In this document: piece by piece, positions 16,728-32,105 of the stretch
How positions within the stretch are numbered: position 1 is the first letter of the stretch
Layout of the letters: each line of letters starts with the position of its first letter
NCBI GenBank assembly: GCA_963667035.1
Contig: OY762964.1
Coordinates: 2,656,001 to 2,720,000 of the forward strand
DNA from: Candidatus Cloacimonadales bacterium
GTDB lineage: Bacteria; Cloacimonadota; Cloacimonadia; Cloacimonadales; JAFGVF01
Direction: 5' to 3'
Length of the DNA: 64,000 bases
Program-made: the position numbers and the translations under genes
Notes under the pieces: generated by a model
Database searches by the model: none
Seen by the model: the letters and a program-made list of their open reading frames with translations, nothing else
What the model was told of the DNA's origin: nothing

Positions 16728-17490
16728 AGACTTCTCATTTGATCAGTACGAGTTATTGCTGAAAACCGCAATAAAGCAGGGATATCATTGTATTGGAGTC
16801 TCTGAATCAATATCAGATAATCACAATAAAGTTTTAATTATTCGACATGATGTTGACAGGAAGCCGTCAAAATCGTTGAAGATGGCTAAAATTGAACAAA
16901 TACTATTTTGCAGAGCAACCTACTATTTTCGAGCAAAACCAGTAAGCTTTGATGAGGACGTTATCCATGGAATCAGTTCATTAAATCATGAAATTGGATT
17001 TCATTATGAGAATCTATGCGATACAAATGGAGATATTGTTAAGGCATTCTCAAACTTTAAAGAAAATCTCTCAAGTTTTACCAATCTGGGTTATAAAATT
17101 AACTCAATTGCAATGCATGGTAGACCTGCAAGCCCTTACGATAGTAAAGATATTTGGAAAAAGTACGATTATAAAAAATTAGGGATTTCTAATGAAACAT
17201 TCTTTGATTTTGATTATAATAAAATCCTGTATGTTACAGATGCCGGGAGAGCTTGGAGTAATGACTCGGTTAATAAAAGGGATAGGGTTGAATCAAAGCT
17301 TAATTTTAAAATTGATAGTTTAAGCATGTTTATAAAAGAGCTAAATCAAGGAAGTCTTCCTAACACGATTATGATTAATATACATCCAGAGCATTGGGCA
17401 GAAAATGTATTAGAATGGTACATTATCCATGTAAAGAGAACTCTAAGAAACATAGTAAAGAAAACATTGTTAAGGCTAAAGCTTATATGA
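16720..17490 (+). CDS. Polysaccharide-deacetylase-like protein
   Basis: Motifs RHDVD, ATYYF, HEIGFH, MHG and IHPEHW. Confidence 0.7.
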   Translation: MNKDFSFDQYELLLKTAIKQGYHCIGVSESISDNHNKVLIIRHDVDRKPSKSLKMAKIEQILFCRATYYFRAKPVSFDEDVIHGISSLNHEIGFHYENLCDTNGDIVKAFSNFKENLSSFTNLGYKINSIAMHGRPASPYDSKDIWKKYDYKKLGISNETFFDFDYNKILYVTDAGRAWSNDSVNKRDRVESKLNFKIDSLSMFIKELNQGSLPNTIMINIHPEHWAENVLEWYIIHVKRTLRNIVKKTLLRLKLI

Positions 17491-19100
17491 AAAAAAGATT
17501 CTGGTTTTTAAGTTATTTTGTCCTAGATATGCTACTTATCTTTGGCTCTTTTGCATTAGTAGCATGGTATATGAAAGGAACACGTAATATCCTAAAAGAC
17601 TATAGTAAACCATTCTTGGGCTATCTTTTTACTTGGCAACTTGCCGGATTATGGGGTGGAAAATACACTATTAGGAAAAAGAATTCAGTTCAAGATATTT
17701 GGAAATCAATCGTTGTTAATGATGTATTTGCAATAGCGGTAATAGTTTGTGCAATACTCTTCTTTAAAAGATTCACATATTCTCAGTCGTTAGTATTCGG
17801 TACAATGGTTCTATCTGTAGGATCTGAGTTAATAATTTTCACTCTACTATATTACTCTTTCAGATTCTATCTTGATAACCCGAGTTTTGCAAAAACGACC
17901 TTAGTAACCAAATCAAGAATGCTGGAAGAGATTCCTTCAGGTATTGAGAACAAGAAATACAATCCTATATCTGATCAGGATAGTCTACCTACTGACTATT
18001 GCTCAGATAATAAATATGCACCTTTTACAGATAGAGGTGATTTGAGCGTTAGGACTGATTTAAAGAGAAACTATTTATCCGGTAAAGTAAAACTGTTTAA
18101 TTTCTTGGATGAGTTTGTTGAGTTGAAAAACATAAGTAAGAATGATTCTCTAGTTATTAATAGTCAGACATTCTATAATATAGAGGTGATTGAGAAAGAT
18201 TCAAAAGAGTTGTTTGTTAATCTACATCGAATTAACGATTTTAGGCGTATAAACAAATTCTTGATTCAATTAAATGAAATTATAAAACCCGATGGTATAT
18301 TGGTTGCTAATGTTGAAACATTTCAGGAGCAAAAGCATCAGTTAATGAAGAAATATACTTCTTTTTTTGGAAGTATAATATACATGTTTGATTTCTGTTT
18401 TAGAAGAGTTTTCCCAAAAGTAATGCTACTTAAGGGTCTATACTTTGCATTAACAAAAGGGAGGAATAGGGCTTTATCCGAGACGGAAGTATTGGGTAGA
18501 TTATATTACTGTGGATTTGAGCTAATTGAAAGCAGAAAAATAGGGACAAGACTTTATCTCATCGCCAGGAAAATTCAGAATCCTAAGAATGATGATAACC
18601 CTTCCTATGGACCGTTAATCAAATTGCGTAGAAGGGGAAAGAACGGTAAGACAATATTTTTATACAAAATTAGAACAATGCACCCATATTCAGAGTATTT
18701 ACAGAATTATATCTATAAAAAATACAAATTACAGAAAGGTGGCAAGTTTGCTAATGATCCTCGTGTTACAAGTTGGGGAAAAGTTTTCAGAAAGCTTTGG
18801 ATTGATGAGTTACCTCAGTTTATAAACTTCTTCAAGGGTGAAGTTGGATTAGTTGGCGTAAGAGCCTTAAGTGAGCACTATTTTAGTTTATATCCTGAGG
18901 ATGTACAGGAACTAAGGATAAAGGTTAAACCTGGATTGCTACCCCCATTTTATGCTGATATGCCAGAGAGCTTTGAAGAGATAGTGCAATCGGAAAAACG
19001 ATATCTGCTTAAAAAGTTAAAGCACCCGATTATCACAGATTTTACATACTTCTTCAAGTGCATGTTCAACATCTTGATTAAAAAAGTGAGAAGCCACTAA
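17487..19100 (+). CDS. Priming polyprenyl-phosphate sugar phosphotransferase (Bac_transf domain)
   Basis: N-terminal TM helices, then C-terminal YKIRTM, DPRVT..GK..RKLWIDELPQ, LVGVR and VKPG. ATG 17487 overlaps the upstream TGA, so it is preferred over the 17394 start. Confidence 0.85.
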   Translation: MKKRFWFLSYFVLDMLLIFGSFALVAWYMKGTRNILKDYSKPFLGYLFTWQLAGLWGGKYTIRKKNSVQDIWKSIVVNDVFAIAVIVCAILFFKRFTYSQSLVFGTMVLSVGSELIIFTLLYYSFRFYLDNPSFAKTTLVTKSRMLEEIPSGIENKKYNPISDQDSLPTDYCSDNKYAPFTDRGDLSVRTDLKRNYLSGKVKLFNFLDEFVELKNISKNDSLVINSQTFYNIEVIEKDSKELFVNLHRINDFRRINKFLIQLNEIIKPDGILVANVETFQEQKHQLMKKYTSFFGSIIYMFDFCFRRVFPKVMLLKGLYFALTKGRNRALSETEVLGRLYYCGFELIESRKIGTRLYLIARKIQNPKNDDNPSYGPLIKLRRRGKNGKTIFLYKIRTMHPYSEYLQNYIYKKYKLQKGGKFANDPRVTSWGKVFRKLWIDELPQFINFFKGEVGLVGVRALSEHYFSLYPEDVQELRIKVKPGLLPPFYADMPESFEEIVQSEKRYLLKKLKHPIITDFTYFFKCMFNILIKKVRSH

Positions 19101-20071: not shown

Positions 20072-21124
20072 ATGAAGATATTAGTTACAGGAACAGCCGG
20101 ATTTATTGGATATCATTTAGTAAATAGACTTGTTAAGATAGATGGTATTGAAGTTGTCGGATTGGATATTATCAACGATTATTATGATTTAAGTGTCAAG
20201 TATGGTAGGTTAAATAATGCAGGTATTGAAATGGAGTTTATTAAACGAAATATACTGATTCAGAGTAATAAATATCCCAATTATAGGTTTATTAAGCTTG
20301 ATTTAATTGATCAGAAAAACCTATATAAACTATTTGCTGATGAGAAATTCGACATAGTTGTTAATCTTGCTGCTCAGGCTGGGGTTCGTTACAGTATTAC
20401 TAATCCTGATGCTTATATAGAAAGCAATATTATTGGTTTCTTCAATATTCTTGAAGCTTCAAGACATAACAAGATAAAACATCTTGTTTATGCTAGCAGT
20501 TCAAGTGTTTATGGATGGAATGAAAGTATGCCGTTCAGTACTTCTGACAATGTAGATCACCCAATAAGTCTTTATGCAGCAAGTAAAAAATCTAATGAGT
20601 TGCTAGCTCATTCTTACTCTGCACTTTACAATATCCCGACTACAGGTCTGCGATTTTTTACTGTTTACGGTCCATGGGGAAGACCTGATATGGCTTTGTT
20701 TATATTTACCGAGAACATCTTAAAGGGTGAGCCCATTAAGGTCTTTAATTATGGCAAAATGAAGCGAGATTTTACTTATATTGATGATATAGTAGAAGGA
20801 ATTAGAAGAGTAATTTTTAATCCTTCAGAACCAAACAAAGATTGGTCGGGAGTGGACCCTGATCCGGGTAGTTCAAAAGCTCCATATAAGATTTATAATA
20901 TTGGAAATAATTCACCTGTGCTACTTATGGAGTTTATAAATGCAATTGAAGAAACTCTTGGAATTGAGGCAAAAAAAGATTTATTACCTCTTCAACCTGG
21001 AGATGTCCCTGCAAGTCATGCGGATGTTACTGATTTGATTGAGAATTTAGGTTATAAGCCTGCAACCCCTATTAAAGAGGGTATTGAAAAGTTTATATCA
21101 TGGTATAAAGAATTTTATCAATAA
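20072..21124 (+). CDS. NAD-dependent UDP-glucuronate 4-epimerase (CapI-like)
   Basis: Motifs VTGTAGFIG, NLAAQAGVRYS, YAASKK, RFFTVYGPWGRPDMA and RDFTYIDD. Confidence 0.92.
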   Translation: MKILVTGTAGFIGYHLVNRLVKIDGIEVVGLDIINDYYDLSVKYGRLNNAGIEMEFIKRNILIQSNKYPNYRFIKLDLIDQKNLYKLFADEKFDIVVNLAAQAGVRYSITNPDAYIESNIIGFFNILEASRHNKIKHLVYASSSSVYGWNESMPFSTSDNVDHPISLYAASKKSNELLAHSYSALYNIPTTGLRFFTVYGPWGRPDMALFIFTENILKGEPIKVFNYGKMKRDFTYIDDIVEGIRRVIFNPSEPNKDWSGVDPDPGSSKAPYKIYNIGNNSPVLLMEFINAIEETLGIEAKKDLLPLQPGDVPASHADVTDLIENLGYKPATPIKEGIEKFISWYKEFYQ

Positions 21125-21158
21125 TCTATAAGGGGATATTTATTATTCCCTTAGTTAT

Positions 21159-21199
21159 AAAAAAGCCATTTATCACCGGGGAGTATGGTGATAAATGGC
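21159..21199 (-). terminator. Intrinsic terminator, minus strand
   Basis: Perfect 13-bp stem GCCATTTATCACC / GGTGATAAATGGC with a 9-nt loop, followed by T6 on the minus strand (A6 at 21159-21164). Confidence 0.8.
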
Positions 21200-21251
21200 A
21201 TGTCTATTAGTAAACCCTCTCGCCGACATTATATTACATATCTAATGTCAT
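21159..21251 (-). ncRNA. Candidate sigma54-dependent small RNA (~93 nt)
   Basis: A -24/-12 promoter lies directly upstream, there is a 5' hairpin GACATTA/TAATGTC, and a 3' terminator. No credible ORF. Confidence 0.5.
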
Positions 21252-21260
21252 AATATATAA

Positions 21261-21278
21261 ATGCAGAAAGCGTTCCAA
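21261..21278 (-). promoter_or_regulatory. Putative sigma54 (-24/-12) promoter
   Basis: The minus strand reads TTGGAACGCTTTCTGCAT, which has GG-N10-GC spacing and is close to the consensus YTGGCACG-N4-TTGCW. Confidence 0.55.
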
Positions 21279-21676
21279 TTACAAATGAAAACTTAATTTC
21301 TTTTATGTTAGGCAGTTAGCTGTTTACGTTAAATTTATTCCTTTTATTTATAATGATTTATTTTGGCATGATATCTATTTTAATGGAAAATGCTCCAATT
21401 ATTCTAAAAGGCACTATTACTCAAATATAACTATCGCTAATCAATCACTATATTTAGTTTTCATATACTAATAAAGCAATCGCTCCAAATTATGAATTTG
21501 CTCCATTTTGCCATAAATCTATAAATACTGTAATACCTACATTTTACGCATAATCAGAAAAAAGTTTATTCACAACTTCTTAACTTATTTGTTTACAATA
21601 TGAAGTTTGTTCATTTATTTTGACATACTTAGCTTGTTACAAATAAACAAGTATCATAAAATAAGGAGTTAATTCA

Positions 21677-22978
21677 ATGAAGAAAACATTATTAGTTTTA
21701 CTAACAATCACTGTATGCTTCTCCGTATTTGCTAATGGTTTTAATCTTAATACCGTTGGAGCAAGGGCTTTTGGTTTAGGTGGAGCAATGGTTGGTTTGG
21801 CTGACGATCCAACTGCATTTCATTGGAATCCTGCCGGATTAGCAACTCAGGATAGTTCTATTCAATTACTTGGTCATGACATTATACCTGCTTTAAGCTA
21901 TGAATATAGTTTGGCTGGAATTGATGCGGAATCAGAGACAAAACATTACCCACCACCAGCACTTTTCTGGAACCATAAGGTCAAACCAACAATGGCAATA
22001 GGTTTTGGTATGTGTGTTCCTTCTGCTATTGGTGCAGCATGGGACGGAAAGGATTTAATGGGGTTCAATGGCCCTGCTCATTATCCTGTGCCCGGAACCG
22101 GTATTGTTTTAGACAATATTTTGACTAGTCCTCTTGAGTGGGAAAGCCAAGTAATGGTTGCTCATTTTGGTCCTTCTATTGCATATCGAGCTTCAGAAAA
22201 ACTCTCTTTAGGTGCTACTGCGGAACTTAGTTACGGAAGCATGAAGCTTAACATGGGTGATGACCTTACGAACAACTTTGATGCTACTGATCAGACTCCT
22301 GATGGAATGATGGATACTCAGTATAATGAGGACTCATCCGGACTTGGTTTTGGTGTTAATCTTGGTTTAAAATACGAATTCAATGATGAATTCAGTATTG
22401 GTGCCGTATATCGTTCACCGGTTAGTTTTGCTTTTAAACAGGATGATGCTGAACTGGTTACTCCCAATGGTACATTGAATGCTGAAATGACACGTTATAT
22501 TACATGGCCAATGATGTTAGGATTTGGTACAGCTATTCAAGTTAAACCATATTGGACTCTTACTGCTGATGTTCAATATACTGAATGGTCAATTATGGAT
22601 GAACTAAAGACAGAGCTTGATTTTGATAACGATGCTCTGGACAGAGTTAAAGTTACTCATCTTGACTGGGTAGACGCTACTCAGTATAGAATTGGTAACG
22701 AATTCAAAGTGCATAAGATGTGGGATGTTAGATTAGGTTATTATTATGACCCTTCACCTGCACCAAATGAGACAATCAATATTCTTTTCCCTTCACATAC
22801 TTATCATGCTGTAACAACCGGTTTTGGTTATCATAATGATAAATTTGCCGCTGATTTAGGTTTTGAATATCTGATGGGAGACGAAAGAGAAGCTGTTGGT
22901 GTTTATGGAGCAGAAATGCCCGGTACATACCAGATGAATATAACTTCTCTGGCATTATCTCTTACCTATAAGTACTAA
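21677..22978 (+). CDS. FadL/OmpP1/TodX-family outer-membrane transporter
   Basis: Signal peptide, ANGFNL...GARAFGLGGA...ADDPTAFHWNPAGL, RLGYYYDPSP and a C-terminal aromatic residue (YKY). Confidence 0.9.
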   Translation: MKKTLLVLLTITVCFSVFANGFNLNTVGARAFGLGGAMVGLADDPTAFHWNPAGLATQDSSIQLLGHDIIPALSYEYSLAGIDAESETKHYPPPALFWNHKVKPTMAIGFGMCVPSAIGAAWDGKDLMGFNGPAHYPVPGTGIVLDNILTSPLEWESQVMVAHFGPSIAYRASEKLSLGATAELSYGSMKLNMGDDLTNNFDATDQTPDGMMDTQYNEDSSGLGFGVNLGLKYEFNDEFSIGAVYRSPVSFAFKQDDAELVTPNGTLNAEMTRYITWPMMLGFGTAIQVKPYWTLTADVQYTEWSIMDELKTELDFDNDALDRVKVTHLDWVDATQYRIGNEFKVHKMWDVRLGYYYDPSPAPNETINILFPSHTYHAVTTGFGYHNDKFAADLGFEYLMGDEREAVGVYGAEMPGTYQMNITSLALSLTYKY

Positions 22979-23336: not shown

Positions 23337-24488
23337 TTATTCTTTCAACGCCTCAATTTCTTGCATCATAACATCAAAGTAATTGCCAACCCATTCCGGT
23401 TTGACATCTACCTCCTTACTGCTTAAAAAACTGGCAAATGAATCTTCATGTTCCGGAGAAAATCCATGCATTCCCGGTAAAGCATTCCTTCCCATGTCAG
23501 AAGGTGCAATTTGTACACCCGGTTCCATTAATACTATATCATCTCCGTACATATTGTCCGGGAAGTTTATTCCATATTTTATCTTATCATTCTCGTTCAA
23601 TAATCTTGAATATGGAATAGTTTTTATTACATCCTTTATTGATTTTCGGGCATTGTCGTTGAAGTAATAAAAATGAATCATTGTAGAATCATAGACTGCA
23701 ATGTAATCCTTACCGAATTTAAGAGGTAGTGCTTCCACTATCTTTTTCGCATCAACAGTCTGAGTTAGTGTTGTCATACCATGGTCGGAAATAATGAAAA
23801 GATTATATTCATCATAATTCTTTTCCATTTCCTGCTTTAGTGTAAATATTTTCTCAGAATACCAATCTAACTTCTGTCTAACTTCTTTACCATCCTTGGT
23901 AACCTGATGTAACAATCCATCCATGGCAGCAGTATATAGAAAGGCAAAATCAATACTTTTATTAGAAACATCTTTAATCAGACTATTAATGTTTTCCTCT
24001 TCCGATAATCGCCAGTTAGATATATGATACTTTAATCCTGCTTCCTCAAGCTTATCTGCCAAATTTGGCACAGGAGACAAACCATTAGGAATGAACATAT
24101 CTTTCTTCTCTATGTAATCAAAATAGGGTAATCTGGCAAAAGGCATGGCGTACATCTCAAAATAGCCTGTGAAACCATAAAGTTTAGCAATAATCTTTGA
24201 GAATAGATGTCTGAATCTCCATCGATCAAAGATAACTCCGGGTAGAAACTTTAGAAGTTTAAAAAGCTTAAACGGTGATTCTTGAGGATTGTAGTAGTAA
24301 AAACTGAGATGCTTATGTACTTCCGGTTTTTGTCCTGTAAGTATGGTTGGAATTGCAGTGCAAGAGTAACCGAATTGCATCTTAACTTTGTTTCTATATG
24401 GTAGTAATTCTTCCAGAAAATGGTGCTTTTGCACGATTTCCCACCCTAAGGCATCTATAAACATAAATACAGATAGTTTTCTCATCAT
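23337..24488 (-). CDS. Alkaline-phosphatase-superfamily / nucleotide pyrophosphatase-phosphodiesterase
   Basis: Motifs FIDALGW, GYSCTAIPTILTG, DGLLH, ISDHGM and GMHG. Confidence 0.8.
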   Translation of the reverse strand: MMRKLSVFMFIDALGWEIVQKHHFLEELLPYRNKVKMQFGYSCTAIPTILTGQKPEVHKHLSFYYYNPQESPFKLFKLLKFLPGVIFDRWRFRHLFSKIIAKLYGFTGYFEMYAMPFARLPYFDYIEKKDMFIPNGLSPVPNLADKLEEAGLKYHISNWRLSEEENINSLIKDVSNKSIDFAFLYTAAMDGLLHQVTKDGKEVRQKLDWYSEKIFTLKQEMEKNYDEYNLFIISDHGMTTLTQTVDAKKIVEALPLKFGKDYIAVYDSTMIHFYYFNDNARKSIKDVIKTIPYSRLLNENDKIKYGINFPDNMYGDDIVLMEPGVQIAPSDMGRNALPGMHGFSPEHEDSFASFLSSKEVDVKPEWVGNYFDVMMQEIEALKE

Positions 24489-26335
24489 AAACCTTTCCTA
24501 TTTCTCTCACTAAGAAGAACTAAGTCCTTCAGTTCTTGGTTTCCACGAGCAGCTAGCCATCTCTTCTCAAAATCCTTATGATGAACCACTTGGGCAATAG
24601 ATGCTAGAGCTCTCAGATGTTGATTTCTTCTGTCAAGAGTTCCGGCGAGAACAAAGATAGCTTTAACTTCTTGGTAAAGGTCCGTATAATTAGTTCCTTT
24701 TCTCGTTCTGATTAACATGATCTGGAATCTGTCCTCTCCTTCCAGAATCAGGTGAGGCACTGCTAGGAAAGGAGTCAAAGCTGTCGAACTCTGTGCTTCT
24801 CTTTCCTTTAATGATTTTAAAACATCAGCTTCTTCCAGATTTAGATGATTACTCATCTTAATAGATATTCTATGGAATAATTCTTCTACGCCAATTTTTT
24901 CATCGATATCCAAGACAAGAGAGTTCTCAATTAAATAATCAAAACTGTCTTTATCAATCTCATCACGTTGATACAAAATCTCTTTTAATTCAGATTCAAG
25001 ATTGTAGCTAGTAAGCTTTTTATTCATCATTCTTTCAGCAAGGTGAAGAAGTGCATATTCTTGTTTTGAACGCTTTCTACCATAAGCCATATAGATGATA
25101 AATCCAATCACAATGAGACCAAGACTAATTAGAATTGCTTTTAATCCCATATCACTTATCAAAAAAATGAAAGCAATAATTCCTACAAACTGTACCCACG
25201 GATATAAGGGAGACTTGAAACTGGGTCTGTAATTCTGCATTCTGCTTTCTCTTAAAATCATAACAGATATATGTGAAAGGATGTAGTTCATAATTATTAC
25301 AGTCGAGGCAGCTTTAACAAGTATCTCTAAGTCGACCAGAAGTGCCAAAACAATAAAAGTACCGGTTAGTATGATTGAAACATACGGGGTACTTCTCTTA
25401 TCGGTTTTAGCTAAAAGAGTAGGAACCAATTCATCTCTACCTAGAGCAAGAGGATACCTTGATGCTGCCATTATTCCTGCGTTTGCAGTAGTTATAAATG
25501 CCAACATAGAAGCTACAGTAATTGCCCAATAACCGAAGTTTCCTAAAATCATTTTAGATGATTGAGCAATAGGTGTTTCTATGTTACCCGGAAGGATTAG
25601 TTTGTCTCCCATAACCCCTACTGTCACAAGTAACATAAAAGAGTATAGTATAATAGCAACAATAAGTGAGCTAATCAAAGCAAAAGGAATGTTTTTCTTA
25701 GGATCTTTGATCTCTTCACTCATACTGGCAATTTTAAGTAATCCGCCATAAGATACGAACACAAAACCGGCTGTTGTGAAAATGGTATTATAATTCTTGC
25801 CATCAGGAATAAATGGAACGAAGTTCTCTACATTAATCTTACCTAAACCTGCCAAAATATAAGTTAGCATCAGTAAAAAAAGGAATATGACAAGGATAGC
25901 TTGGAATTTACCGGCTTCTTTTACCCCCACCAGATTCAAGCCAACAAAACCAGCCGTAAACAGTATTCCAAAGAGCTGAGTATTTATTCCAGGTAACATC
26001 ATCTTTAGTACAAATACAATACCGATAATACCGAATGCACTTTTAAGGGAAAGGGCAAACCAACTTAACAATCCTGATACCGTACCAACTGATGATCCCA
26101 AACTACGAGTTATAAAAAAGTAATCTCCTCCTGCTTTTGGCATTGCTGTTGCTAATTCTGCTATGCTAAAGACACCGGTCATTGCAAGTAAACCGGCAAG
26201 AAAATAAGAGATAAAAATTGATGGCCCGGCTAGTTGATATGCGATACCGGGAAGAATGAATATTCCTGAACTAATCATTGCTCCGGAAGCAATACTAAAG
26301 ACTTCGAAGAAGCCCAATTCCTTTTTTAATTCCAT
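24485..26335 (-). CDS. APC-family amino-acid permease fused to a C-terminal PTS EIIA (Fru/Ntr-type) domain
   Basis: Motifs GAMISSGIF, ELATAMPKAGG and SEEIKDP. The C-terminal domain has REAQSSTA...AVPHL and HLRALA. Confidence 0.88.
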   Translation of the reverse strand: MELKKELGFFEVFSIASGAMISSGIFILPGIAYQLAGPSIFISYFLAGLLAMTGVFSIAELATAMPKAGGDYFFITRSLGSSVGTVSGLLSWFALSLKSAFGIIGIVFVLKMMLPGINTQLFGILFTAGFVGLNLVGVKEAGKFQAILVIFLFLLMLTYILAGLGKINVENFVPFIPDGKNYNTIFTTAGFVFVSYGGLLKIASMSEEIKDPKKNIPFALISSLIVAIILYSFMLLVTVGVMGDKLILPGNIETPIAQSSKMILGNFGYWAITVASMLAFITTANAGIMAASRYPLALGRDELVPTLLAKTDKRSTPYVSIILTGTFIVLALLVDLEILVKAASTVIIMNYILSHISVMILRESRMQNYRPSFKSPLYPWVQFVGIIAFIFLISDMGLKAILISLGLIVIGFIIYMAYGRKRSKQEYALLHLAERMMNKKLTSYNLESELKEILYQRDEIDKDSFDYLIENSLVLDIDEKIGVEELFHRISIKMSNHLNLEEADVLKSLKEREAQSSTALTPFLAVPHLILEGEDRFQIMLIRTRKGTNYTDLYQEVKAIFVLAGTLDRRNQHLRALASIAQVVHHKDFEKRWLAARGNQELKDLVLLSERNRKGL

Positions 26336-30626: not shown

Positions 30627-32105
30627 GTGGTTATGCTTAAAAAAGTTTCTGACACACAGTCCCAAATGGAGTTTGTAATAATAGATGATTTAGTACCGGT
30701 AGATCACATACTAAGGAAAATCGATAGCGTAATAGATTTTTCATTCATTTTAGATAGAACAGCGCATTTGTATTGTTCTACTACCGGTCGTCCTCCAATT
30801 CATCCTATTACTCTTTTCAAAATGCTTTTTATTGGCTATCTATTCGGTATTCGCTCGGAAAGACAATTGGTCAAAGAGATTGAGGTCAATGTGGCTTATC
30901 GTTGGTTCTTAGGCTTTGGACTAACTGATAAAGTACCTCATCACTCAGTCTTCAGTCAAAATCGTAGAAGGCGATTTAATGATAGCAGCGTATTCGAAGA
31001 GATTTTTATAGATATAGTGAAGTTAGGCATTAAACATGGATTAGTTGATGGGAAGATACTTTATAGCGACTCAACCCATCTAAAGGCAAATGCTAATAAA
31101 GGTAAATTCGAGGATATTGAAGTTGAGGTATCCTCCAAGAGTTACTTGGAAGATCTTAACACAAGCGTTGATGAAGATCGGAAGGCTCATGGTAAGAAAC
31201 CTTTACCTCCTAAGGATAACAATCTTAAAGGAGGAGCATCACCTAAAGTAAAAAATATCAAGTCTAGCACAACAGATCCCGATAGTGGTTTTATGACCCG
31301 TGATAGAAAGCCTCAAGGCTTCTTCTACTTAGATCATAGGACAGTCGACCATAAAACGAACTATATAACCGATGTTCACATTACTCCCGGCAATGTAAAT
31401 GATAGCACCTGCTATATTGACAGGTTACAGTTCCAACAAAAGGTTTATGGTTTTAATGTTCAGGCAGTAGGGCTTGATTCAGGATATGATACAATTAACA
31501 TTTGTAAGCAACTGGTAGATATGAATATTATGGGAGTCCTTGGCTACAAAAGACAGGGAGGTAAGAAAGGTCTATTTAAAAAGAACAAATTTACATATAA
31601 TTCCCGGAAGGATGTTTACATTTGTCCATGTAATAAAGAGTTAAATTATAGAACAACGAGCCGTGATGGCTATAAAGAATACAAGTCGAATCCTAGTGAA
31701 TGCAAGAATTGTCCAATGCTAAGTAAATGTACAGAAAGTAAGTCTTCTCAAAAAGTAATCACTCGTCATGTCTGGGAAGAGAGCAAAGAGATAATCCACA
31801 AGAATAGGTTAACATTATGTGGGAAAGAGATATACAAGAGGAGAAAAGAAACCATTGAGAGAAGCTTTGCCAATGCAAAGCAACTTCATGGCTACCGATA
31901 TGCAAAATATCGAGGAATAGAGCGAGTTCGAGAACAAGCTTATCTAACAGCTATCGTGCAAAATATCAAGAAACTCGTAAAATACCTTTTCAAAGGTAAA
32001 TTAGGGAAATTAATAGCAAAATTTATCATCAATTACATGATTTTCAACTCCAATTTACACGAAAATAGAGCTAAATCTCGCATGTTTAGGTTTGGGCTCA
32101 GTTAA
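30627..32105 (+). CDS. IS1182-family DDE transposase
   Basis: Motifs GRPPIHP..LFKMLFIGYLFGIRSERQL, AYRWFLG, DSTHLKANA, STTDPDSG, LDSGY, YICP and RRKETIERSFA.AKQLHG.RYA.YRG. Confidence 0.93.
   Translation: MVMLKKVSDTQSQMEFVIIDDLVPVDHILRKIDSVIDFSFILDRTAHLYCSTTGRPPIHPITLFKMLFIGYLFGIRSERQLVKEIEVNVAYRWFLGFGLTDKVPHHSVFSQNRRRRFNDSSVFEEIFIDIVKLGIKHGLVDGKILYSDSTHLKANANKGKFEDIEVEVSSKSYLEDLNTSVDEDRKAHGKKPLPPKDNNLKGGASPKVKNIKSSTTDPDSGFMTRDRKPQGFFYLDHRTVDHKTNYITDVHITPGNVNDSTCYIDRLQFQQKVYGFNVQAVGLDSGYDTINICKQLVDMNIMGVLGYKRQGGKKGLFKKNKFTYNSRKDVYICPCNKELNYRTTSRDGYKEYKSNPSECKNCPMLSKCTESKSSQKVITRHVWEESKEIIHKNRLTLCGKEIYKRRKETIERSFANAKQLHGYRYAKYRGIERVREQAYLTAIVQNIKKLVKYLFKGKLGKLIAKFIINYMIFNSNLHENRAKSRMFRFGLS

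Follow-up and report, generated by a model that had tools for sequence, protein, structure and literature searches.

The window, the whole 64,000-nt stretch of Candidatus Cloacimonadales DNA analysed here, contains on its minus strand a compact unit (21159-21278) made up of a candidate sigma54 promoter and the predicted gene for a small non-coding RNA (Table 1). The unit is single-copy in the 3.1-Mb, one-contig, 98% complete genome (G000). The same epimerase adjoins it, with the unit facing the epimerase, in all three genomes that carry it (G000, G001 and G003), while the OmpP1/FadL neighbour on the other side is kept in G001 and replaced by another gene in G003. Between the RNA and the epimerase lies another hairpin, at 21129-21153, which the original prediction had missed and which likely serves the convergent epimerase operon; on the epimerase strand its tail is T7 in G001 and G003 but weak in G000. 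As this operon has its own hairpin, T7-tailed in both relatives, it does not need the 13-bp hairpin of the unit. The original prediction had described the RNA as convergent with the polysaccharide operon; the arrangement is as described, but nothing was found linking the RNA to the genes of that operon, and the convergence appears incidental. Elsewhere in the window are a polyprenyl glycosylphosphotransferase-like gene with a long middle region lacking a match (17394-19100, plus strand), an APC-type amino-acid permease with a fused C-terminal PTS IIA-like domain (24485-26335, minus strand), and a transposase-like ORF (30627-32105, plus strand) with near-identical copies elsewhere in the genome, its N-terminus recurring at several places. 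Two families of short intergenic repeats were also seen in G000, the first near C1 positions 311119, 1240252 and 3035566, and the second at 1581212, 1581523, 1581834 and 379041, with three of its copies at a 311-bp period.

Table 1. Features at and around the predicted RNA gene (positions in the window), with the candidate RNA loci of another genus (positions in the named loci)
Feature	Position	Strand	Basis or remark
Sugar epimerase, NAD-dependent	20072..21124	+	ends the polysaccharide operon; converges on the RNA gene; no family over cut-off
Separate hairpin, likely terminator of the convergent polysaccharide operon	21129..21153	+	folding; outside the RNA
Predicted non-coding RNA, 93 nt	21159..21251	-	start placed by the -12 offset, end by the U6 run
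Stem P3, 13-bp intrinsic terminator with U6	21159..21199	-	13/13 pairs kept
Terminator loop AUACUCCCC, predicted seed	21178..21186	-	CUCCCC invariant
Stem P2, 5 bp, 4-nt loop	21202..21215	-	GUUUA/UAGAC; 5/5 pairs kept
Invariant 19-nt core AUGUCGGCGAGAGGGUUUA	21211..21229	-	identical in 3/3; middle unpaired
Stem P1, 7 bp, loop length variable	21225..21249	-	7/7 pairs kept in 3 sequences
Predicted sigma54 -24/-12 promoter TTGGAA-N7-TGCA	21262..21278	-	boxes invariant in 3/3; the genome's enriched spacing; rpoN present
Palindrome TGGA-N6-TCCA, predicted activator site (enhancer)	21384..21397	.	119 bp before the -24 box
OmpP1/FadL-family outer-membrane protein	21677..22978	+	Pfam PF03349; divergent from the RNA
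Candidate RNA loci, genus g56	L256:2470-2620 (+), L257:2525-2674 (-), L258:1530-1680 (+), L259:2072-2220 (+)		

The promoter, TTGGAACGCTTTCTGCA at 21278-21262, has its GG at 21276-21275 separated by ten bases from the GC at 21264-21263, confirming the GG-N10-GC element of the original prediction, and this box is kept in both of the relatives that keep the hairpin (G001 and G003). TTGGAA and TGCA are invariant in all three homologues, and the 7-nt spacer between them differs. Because intergenic [TA]TGG[AC]A-N7-TGC[AT] occurs 21 times in the genome, against one to four times at each of six other spacings, the N7 form is taken as the predicted sigma54 consensus of this lineage; nine of the 21 matches sit 30-120 nt before a same-strand gene. 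The bare TGG-N9-TGC is common, with 1028 matches in the genome, and hence spacing alone is little proof and the claim is carried by conservation. A sigma70-like match overlaps the box, such matches being at chance level (5 found against 6.0 expected). The sigma factor on which the original prediction depended is encoded, with rpoN scoring 352.8 bits against a curated cut-off of 277, and 11 strong PF00158 matches represent sigma54 activators. Genome-wide, many candidate sigma54 promoters precede genes for large secreted-looking proteins in G000, one precedes a pilin-like gene at C1:2628836, and a strong -24/-12 box at C1:2855589 (plus strand) lies 359 nt before the next gene, marking either a long leader or another RNA.

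The predicted start is the A at 21251, given by the usual offset of a sigma54 +1 from the -12 element, and the corresponding RNAs of the relatives would be about 100 and 115 nt long. The features of the original prediction (box, start, first hairpin, and terminator with its loop) all lie where it had placed them: the 7-bp hairpin P1 (21249-21225) is kept in three sequences, and the perfect 13-bp terminator, P3, has its stem at 21199-21165 and its U6 at 21164-21159, with all of its pairs maintained. The middle of the RNA, previously read as single-stranded, instead holds the conserved 5-bp hairpin P2 (21215-21202), leaving just CGGCGAGAGG-type open bases between the stems. This third hairpin and the conserved palindrome at 21384-21397 are newly found parts that the original prediction had missed. 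Across the three sequences, pairing holds in 75 of 75 stem cells, and four pairs have changed on both sides: P1 has one pair changed on both sides and two on one side, P2 has two that vary on one side only, and P3, the U tract of which is weaker in G003, has three changed on both sides. Four such pairs were reached by 11 of 500 shuffles, and structures slid along the alignment paired at 33-52%, such that three sequences and four pairs suggest covariation with modest strength. The folding z-score was -3.68, and none of 200 shuffles was as stable, with the terminator contributing most. The C-rich loop on the intrinsic terminator is conserved, reading ACACUCCCC and AAGCUCCCCU in the relatives, and is exposed according to the fold and the unpaired probabilities. 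Searching Rfam with the window and four loci returned no match at the gathering score, the seven weak matches (E 0.37-9.8) all falling far below it.

The unit has a narrow distribution. When 60 relatives were searched at the DNA level, two matched strongly, G001 at E 3.6e-25 and G003 at E 9.9e-14. Both are members of the same genus, and all other matches were at E 2e-4 or worse; of the three further species in this Cloacimonadota genus, two retain the RNA unit. These two relatives preserve the box, all three stems and the core of the loop, and bear out the expectation of covarying stems and a conserved -24/-12 box, albeit with modest covariation. The fourth genus member, G002 (83% complete), gave no RNA match, its epimerase being closely followed by another operon. 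The core was found in none of five genomes when up to three mismatches were allowed, and an RNA model matched only its three training genomes, both among 151 genomes of the order (under stricter filters) and among 12 of the family, in which other loci reached E 0.139 or worse. A pattern search of 232 phylum genomes matched four, including G107 and a match in G015 that reads like coding DNA. Among genome contigs there were 22 matches, comprising 20 without the other parts of the element and two records with it (Cloacimonadota and Cloacimonadales), which over the element are identical to copies already counted and were not recounted. Metagenome contigs yielded no match and then two matches attributable to chance, of which one fell within a long ORF and the other was not accompanied by the rest of the element, and the element was not found in viral contigs or plasmids.

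These data bear on whether there is an independent RNA at all. The hairpin could be a two-way second terminator of the epimerase operon, or the unit could produce nothing beyond interfering antisense transcription, as the operon's own terminator is weak-tailed in G000, the terminator scan listed a 13-14 bp hairpin on the plus strand, and all three copies adjoin the same epimerase. Nevertheless, we consider this very unlikely, because G001 and G003 have a strong separate operon terminator, the U tracts are oriented for the minus strand, G002 retains the epimerase but not the element, and a terminator does not need the conserved promoter, palindrome, P1, P2 and core. It is likewise very unlikely that the unit is a mini-gene: the ATG at 21229 opens MSARGF(T/S)N... 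in all three genomes, in a frame open for 18, 19 and 31 residues, but it lies inside stem P1 without a preceding Shine-Dalgarno (SD) sequence, the stops differ among genomes, and a comparison by eye of G000 with G001 found four amino-acid-changing bases, one silent base and a difference in the stop codon, with no silent change in the first six codons. The original prediction of an unannotated sigma54-type small RNA gene is supported by the conserved promoter, stems and loop core, with no Rfam match, and this gene is very probably real and transcribed as a 93-nt RNA.

Sites for sigma54 activators are palindromic, and lie about 80-150 bp upstream. In the three 180-nt regions upstream of the RNA, which are otherwise no more similar than shuffles, TGGA-N6-TCCA is the sole palindrome with 4-bp arms common to all, at distances of 119, 120 and 101 bp that fit this range for a predicted site. 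When arms contained at least two G/C, none of 2000 control shuffles and one of 20000 triplets drawn at random from intergenic DNA matched this; with any arm, the counts were 85 of 2000 and 99 of 20000. The palindrome, which has five intergenic copies in the genome, is likely the enhancer of the predicted promoter. An IHF site often, although not always, lies between an enhancer and a sigma54 promoter, and an IHF-like match (at most one mismatch from the consensus) falls between the two elements in one of the three genomes, the region being 73-79% AT. Among 22 other sigma54 promoter candidates, none was associated with an exact TGGA-N6-TCCA and one with a copy containing one mismatch; a further search for promoters with the palindrome gave three more matches, two in G000 and one in G003 that reads like coding DNA. 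Read by eye, similar-sized palindromes lie between other activators and their divergent genes, and several G000 activators of 700-780 aa are divergent from genes for secreted-looking proteins, each with its own palindrome.

The search for the owner of the enhancer also led to a predicted target of the RNA, as it was then that the match between the loop and a gene leader was first noticed by eye, with the tests coming afterwards. The loop AUACUCCCC has an exact 9-nt complement in the leader of the gene for a 468-aa activator (G000:C1:793875-795281), which is the sole one of 2394 predicted genes to have all nine bases within 22 nt of the start, 13 having GGGGAG and four GGGGAGT near theirs. In a ranking confined to G000, using our own ORF calls and the loop and core segments, the SD site of this gene was first of 2393 by hybrid energy (-14.7), and stayed first after accessibility correction (-12.8, the next being -11.1), with the other ten sigma54 activators ranking between 138 and 2140. 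The anti-SD loop of the original prediction hence acquires a specific predicted target, ranked 1/2393. Any anti-SD loop favours G-rich SD sites, and 214 of 756 loop permutations match some gene perfectly; sigma54 activators, however, are 11 of the 2393 genes, and two of the 756 permutations, the real loop included, match any activator leader. A 9-bp helix cannot fit fully inside a 9-nt loop.

A predicted loop-complementary site is kept in the activator leader across G000, G001 and G003, at 9, 7 and 6 bp. G001 keeps GGGGAGU, and in G003 a U to C change in the site (GGGAGC) accompanies an A to G change in the loop, giving -12.7 with its own loop against -8.9 with the other two. This single, one-sided event would restore pairing, although the G of the G003 loop also pairs with U, and this loop pairs even better with the sites of the other two genomes (-15.2 and -15.8). 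In G002, without an RNA found, the activator has an ordinary AGGAGU (-6.9 to -8.0). Searches for the target pattern, confined to starts followed by A, gave 79 matches in G003, of which 30 had loci and one, the activator, came through the filter; in G001, two of 18 matches came through the start filter, with the activator dropped, its frame being open upstream.

The 468-aa protein is an orphan, NtrC-like regulator with REC, sigma54-interaction (AAA+) and Fis-type HTH domains and an intact GAFTGA, and reached no named family at its cut-off among the best 25 matches shown. Its gene, 1.9 Mb from that of the RNA in coordinates, heads a run with YbbR-like and lipoprotein-like genes and one that, from its sequence, we take to be TsaD-like. 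There is no sigma54-like box in its upstream region, where the promoter has TTGAC and then TGG(A/C)-N6-TCAA in each of the four genus members; the latter motif differs from the enhancer palindrome at one position in three of them and at two in G002. This near-copy is placed as a self-repression site might be. Under a neutral rule (at most one mismatch) applied to 150 free upstream bases, 25 of 860 genes have one site and only the activator has two, and 4 of 1134 whole intergenic regions have two or more. In the self-site, the right arm coincides in part with the predicted -10 and can be read as a divergent -35 element. The second self-site of G000 overlaps a DnaA-box-like TTATCCAAA, and the relatives showed no counterpart at that position. 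Close orthologues of the activator occur in 3/3 other genus members and in none of eight genomes of two sister genera (E 1e-110), the same eight genomes giving no RNA match. The genes of distant orthologues (41-48%) are operon members that follow a GH57 gene; they lack a promoter of their own, and the HTH they encode differs.

On the loop match, it is probable that the predicted pairing with the activator's SD site occurs and that the RNA acts on it. Whether the same protein activates the RNA through the palindrome and represses itself through the near-copy is, on our assessment, evenly poised. A rather unlikely alternative is that a real sigma54 RNA with an anti-SD loop answers to another activator, of 1219 or 1434 aa, or acts broadly on G-rich SD sites, so that the 468-aa gene is one target of many or a coincidence. 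Neither of these large activators has a sigma54-like box in its upstream region, and the self-site has the other possible readings described above; against this, two separate features, the loop match and the palindrome, indicate the same 468-aa gene, and the 1434-aa activator is also present in the sister genera that gave no RNA match. The 1219-aa activator is in all four genus members, and was not seen in the two sister-genus genomes examined. A candidate for wider targeting is the ABC auxiliary lipoprotein gene at G000:C1:772558, which has GGGGAGU(A) in G000 and G001; it was rejected as a target, having AGGAGU in G003 and a poor accessibility score (-5.2). Also rejected was a 780-aa TPR activator (G000:C1:2777851), which adjoins a TGGA-N6-TCCA, as its G001 and G003 orthologues keep a different palindrome instead.

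Conservation of the 19-nt core exceeds that of the loop; the core likely has another partner, and may be a protein site or a second seed. It has no clear 5'-region target in the hybrid-energy ranking of G000, its best hybrid being the paired acceptor stem of tRNA-Sec, and a core-loop pseudoknot was set aside with at best 5/6 pairs by eye. The RNA might thus be a protein-binding decoy, GlmY- or CrcZ-like, in which a protein is titrated by the GGCGAGAGG core, flanked by two stems, and the loop has a lesser role. The invariance of a core without a clear mRNA partner would suit this reading, which is nonetheless improbable, as it leaves the first-ranked loop match unexplained. Decoys of the CsrB/RsmZ type combine repeated GGA loops with the CsrA protein, whereas there is no GGA in the 93-nt strand, and CsrA (PF02599), Hfq (PF17209) and ProQ were not found in the 98% complete single-contig genome, the controls of the Hfq search having been detected. 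A KhpB/Jag protein is encoded, which favours the decoy reading to some extent; a study of Fusobacterium reports KhpA/B as RNA binders in bacteria without Hfq, CsrA and ProQ (10.1101/2023.10.30.564711).

The reading we prefer is a feedback circuit between the 468-aa regulator and the RNA, for which the following steps are proposed. Firstly, a signal would phosphorylate the orphan regulator. Secondly, the regulator would bind the TGGA-N6-TCCA enhancer and fire the sigma54 promoter, whereupon sigma54 polymerase would make the 93-nt RNA. Thirdly, the loop would pair with GGGGAGU(AU), 9-17 nt before the GTG of the 468-aa gene, occluding the ribosome and cutting translation. Fourthly, the same protein would bind the near-copy between its own -35 and -10, thereby repressing itself. 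The whole loop, from activator to RNA and back to activator, LuxO/Qrr-like and Hfq-free, is a prediction that might equally well hold or fail. More tentatively, Cloacimonadota may have independently built the double feedback of LuxO/Qrr, with an orphan sigma54 regulator that gained its own promoter in one genus, represses it and drives a dedicated Hfq-free RNA, the terminator loop of which co-evolves with an unusual GGGGAG site, while the invariant purine core signals to a further partner.

Among the papers that literature searches listed for Cloacimonadota, none describes such an RNA in its title or the start of its abstract. Other loci offered further candidates. Four genomes of genus g56 (G181, G183, G184 and G185) encode another candidate sigma54 small RNA, distinct from this one and roughly 100 nt long. 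Its -24/-12 box is conserved, and it has a hairpin, a stretch of the UAGUAAUACCCCUCAC type that does not vary, and a terminator whose loop core is UCUCCCA; it has only short words in common with the G000 RNA and a different upstream motif. Two of its loci gave no Rfam match, and its loop no orthologue-consistent match in 30 of 41 activator loci from three g56 genomes, a result that tells against the proposed link between loop and activator in G000. A possible small RNA of about 90 nt was also seen in G068 (L230:1501-1620, plus strand), with a sigma54-like box and a GC-rich terminator with the loop CUCCC.

The G000 RNA belongs to none of the glmY, NfeR1, RepG and LuxO/Qrr systems, although each resembles it in part. 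In Enterobacteriaceae, glmY is transcribed from a sigma54 promoter whose activator sites lie over 100 bp upstream, with three copies of the GlrR site TGTC-N10-GACA; the two-component genes adjoin it, and GlmY is a decoy for RapZ (PMC4152352). The likeness lies in a sigma54 small RNA with sites at this distance and an overlapping sigma70-like match, the last being at chance level here; however, our RNA has no GlmY/GlmZ match in Rfam, the sole palindrome shared between its upstream regions is TGGA-N6-TCCA, and the activator scored 220 of 763 bits with the GlrR model. NfeR1 of Sinorhizobium meliloti has three anti-SD motifs, forming roughly eight base pairs with the start region of an mRNA of the NtrC system; it is repressed by NtrC, targets ntrB, and closes a feedback loop that adds to operon autorepression (PMC10746234). 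Anti-SD pairing in an NtrC-type feedback loop, predicted for the G000 RNA, is what these RNAs have in common, whereas here there is one loop, activation is predicted, the target is the regulator's own leader, and there is no Rfam match. RepG of Helicobacter pylori uses a C/U-rich terminator loop to pair with a G-run in an mRNA leader, its target being the phase-variable G repeat before tlpB-hp0102 (PMC8295292). The predicted seed position is RepG-like, a C-rich terminator loop facing a leader G-run, but here the G-run is the SD itself, the RNA has a predicted sigma54 promoter and enhancer, and there is no sequence match.

The closest parallel in wiring is with quorum sensing in Vibrio harveyi, in which LuxO is a sigma54 activator that drives Qrr1-5 from an upstream site and represses its own transcription, while the Qrr RNAs repress luxO translation (PMC3130561, PMC10162802). 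Autorepression combined with RNA feedback is the same wiring as predicted here, yet the components differ: the palindrome is TGGA-N6-TCCA instead of TTGCAWWWTGCAA, the 468-aa activator scores 226 bits against a cut-off of 800 for the LuxO model NF041946, and the RNA is single-copy, with no Rfam Qrr match, no Hfq found and its predicted seed in the terminator loop. The circuit claim extends to one genus and three sequences, and is a prediction from sequence. If true, an uncultured, deep-branching phylum gains a complete and testable RNA circuit, with its enhancer, promoter, RNA, seed, target and activator all named, and the approach offers a means of assigning orphan sigma54 activators using only sequence data. 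It would also mean that the activator-RNA-activator loop familiar from Vibrio quorum sensing evolved a second time, in the absence of Hfq, CsrA and ProQ.
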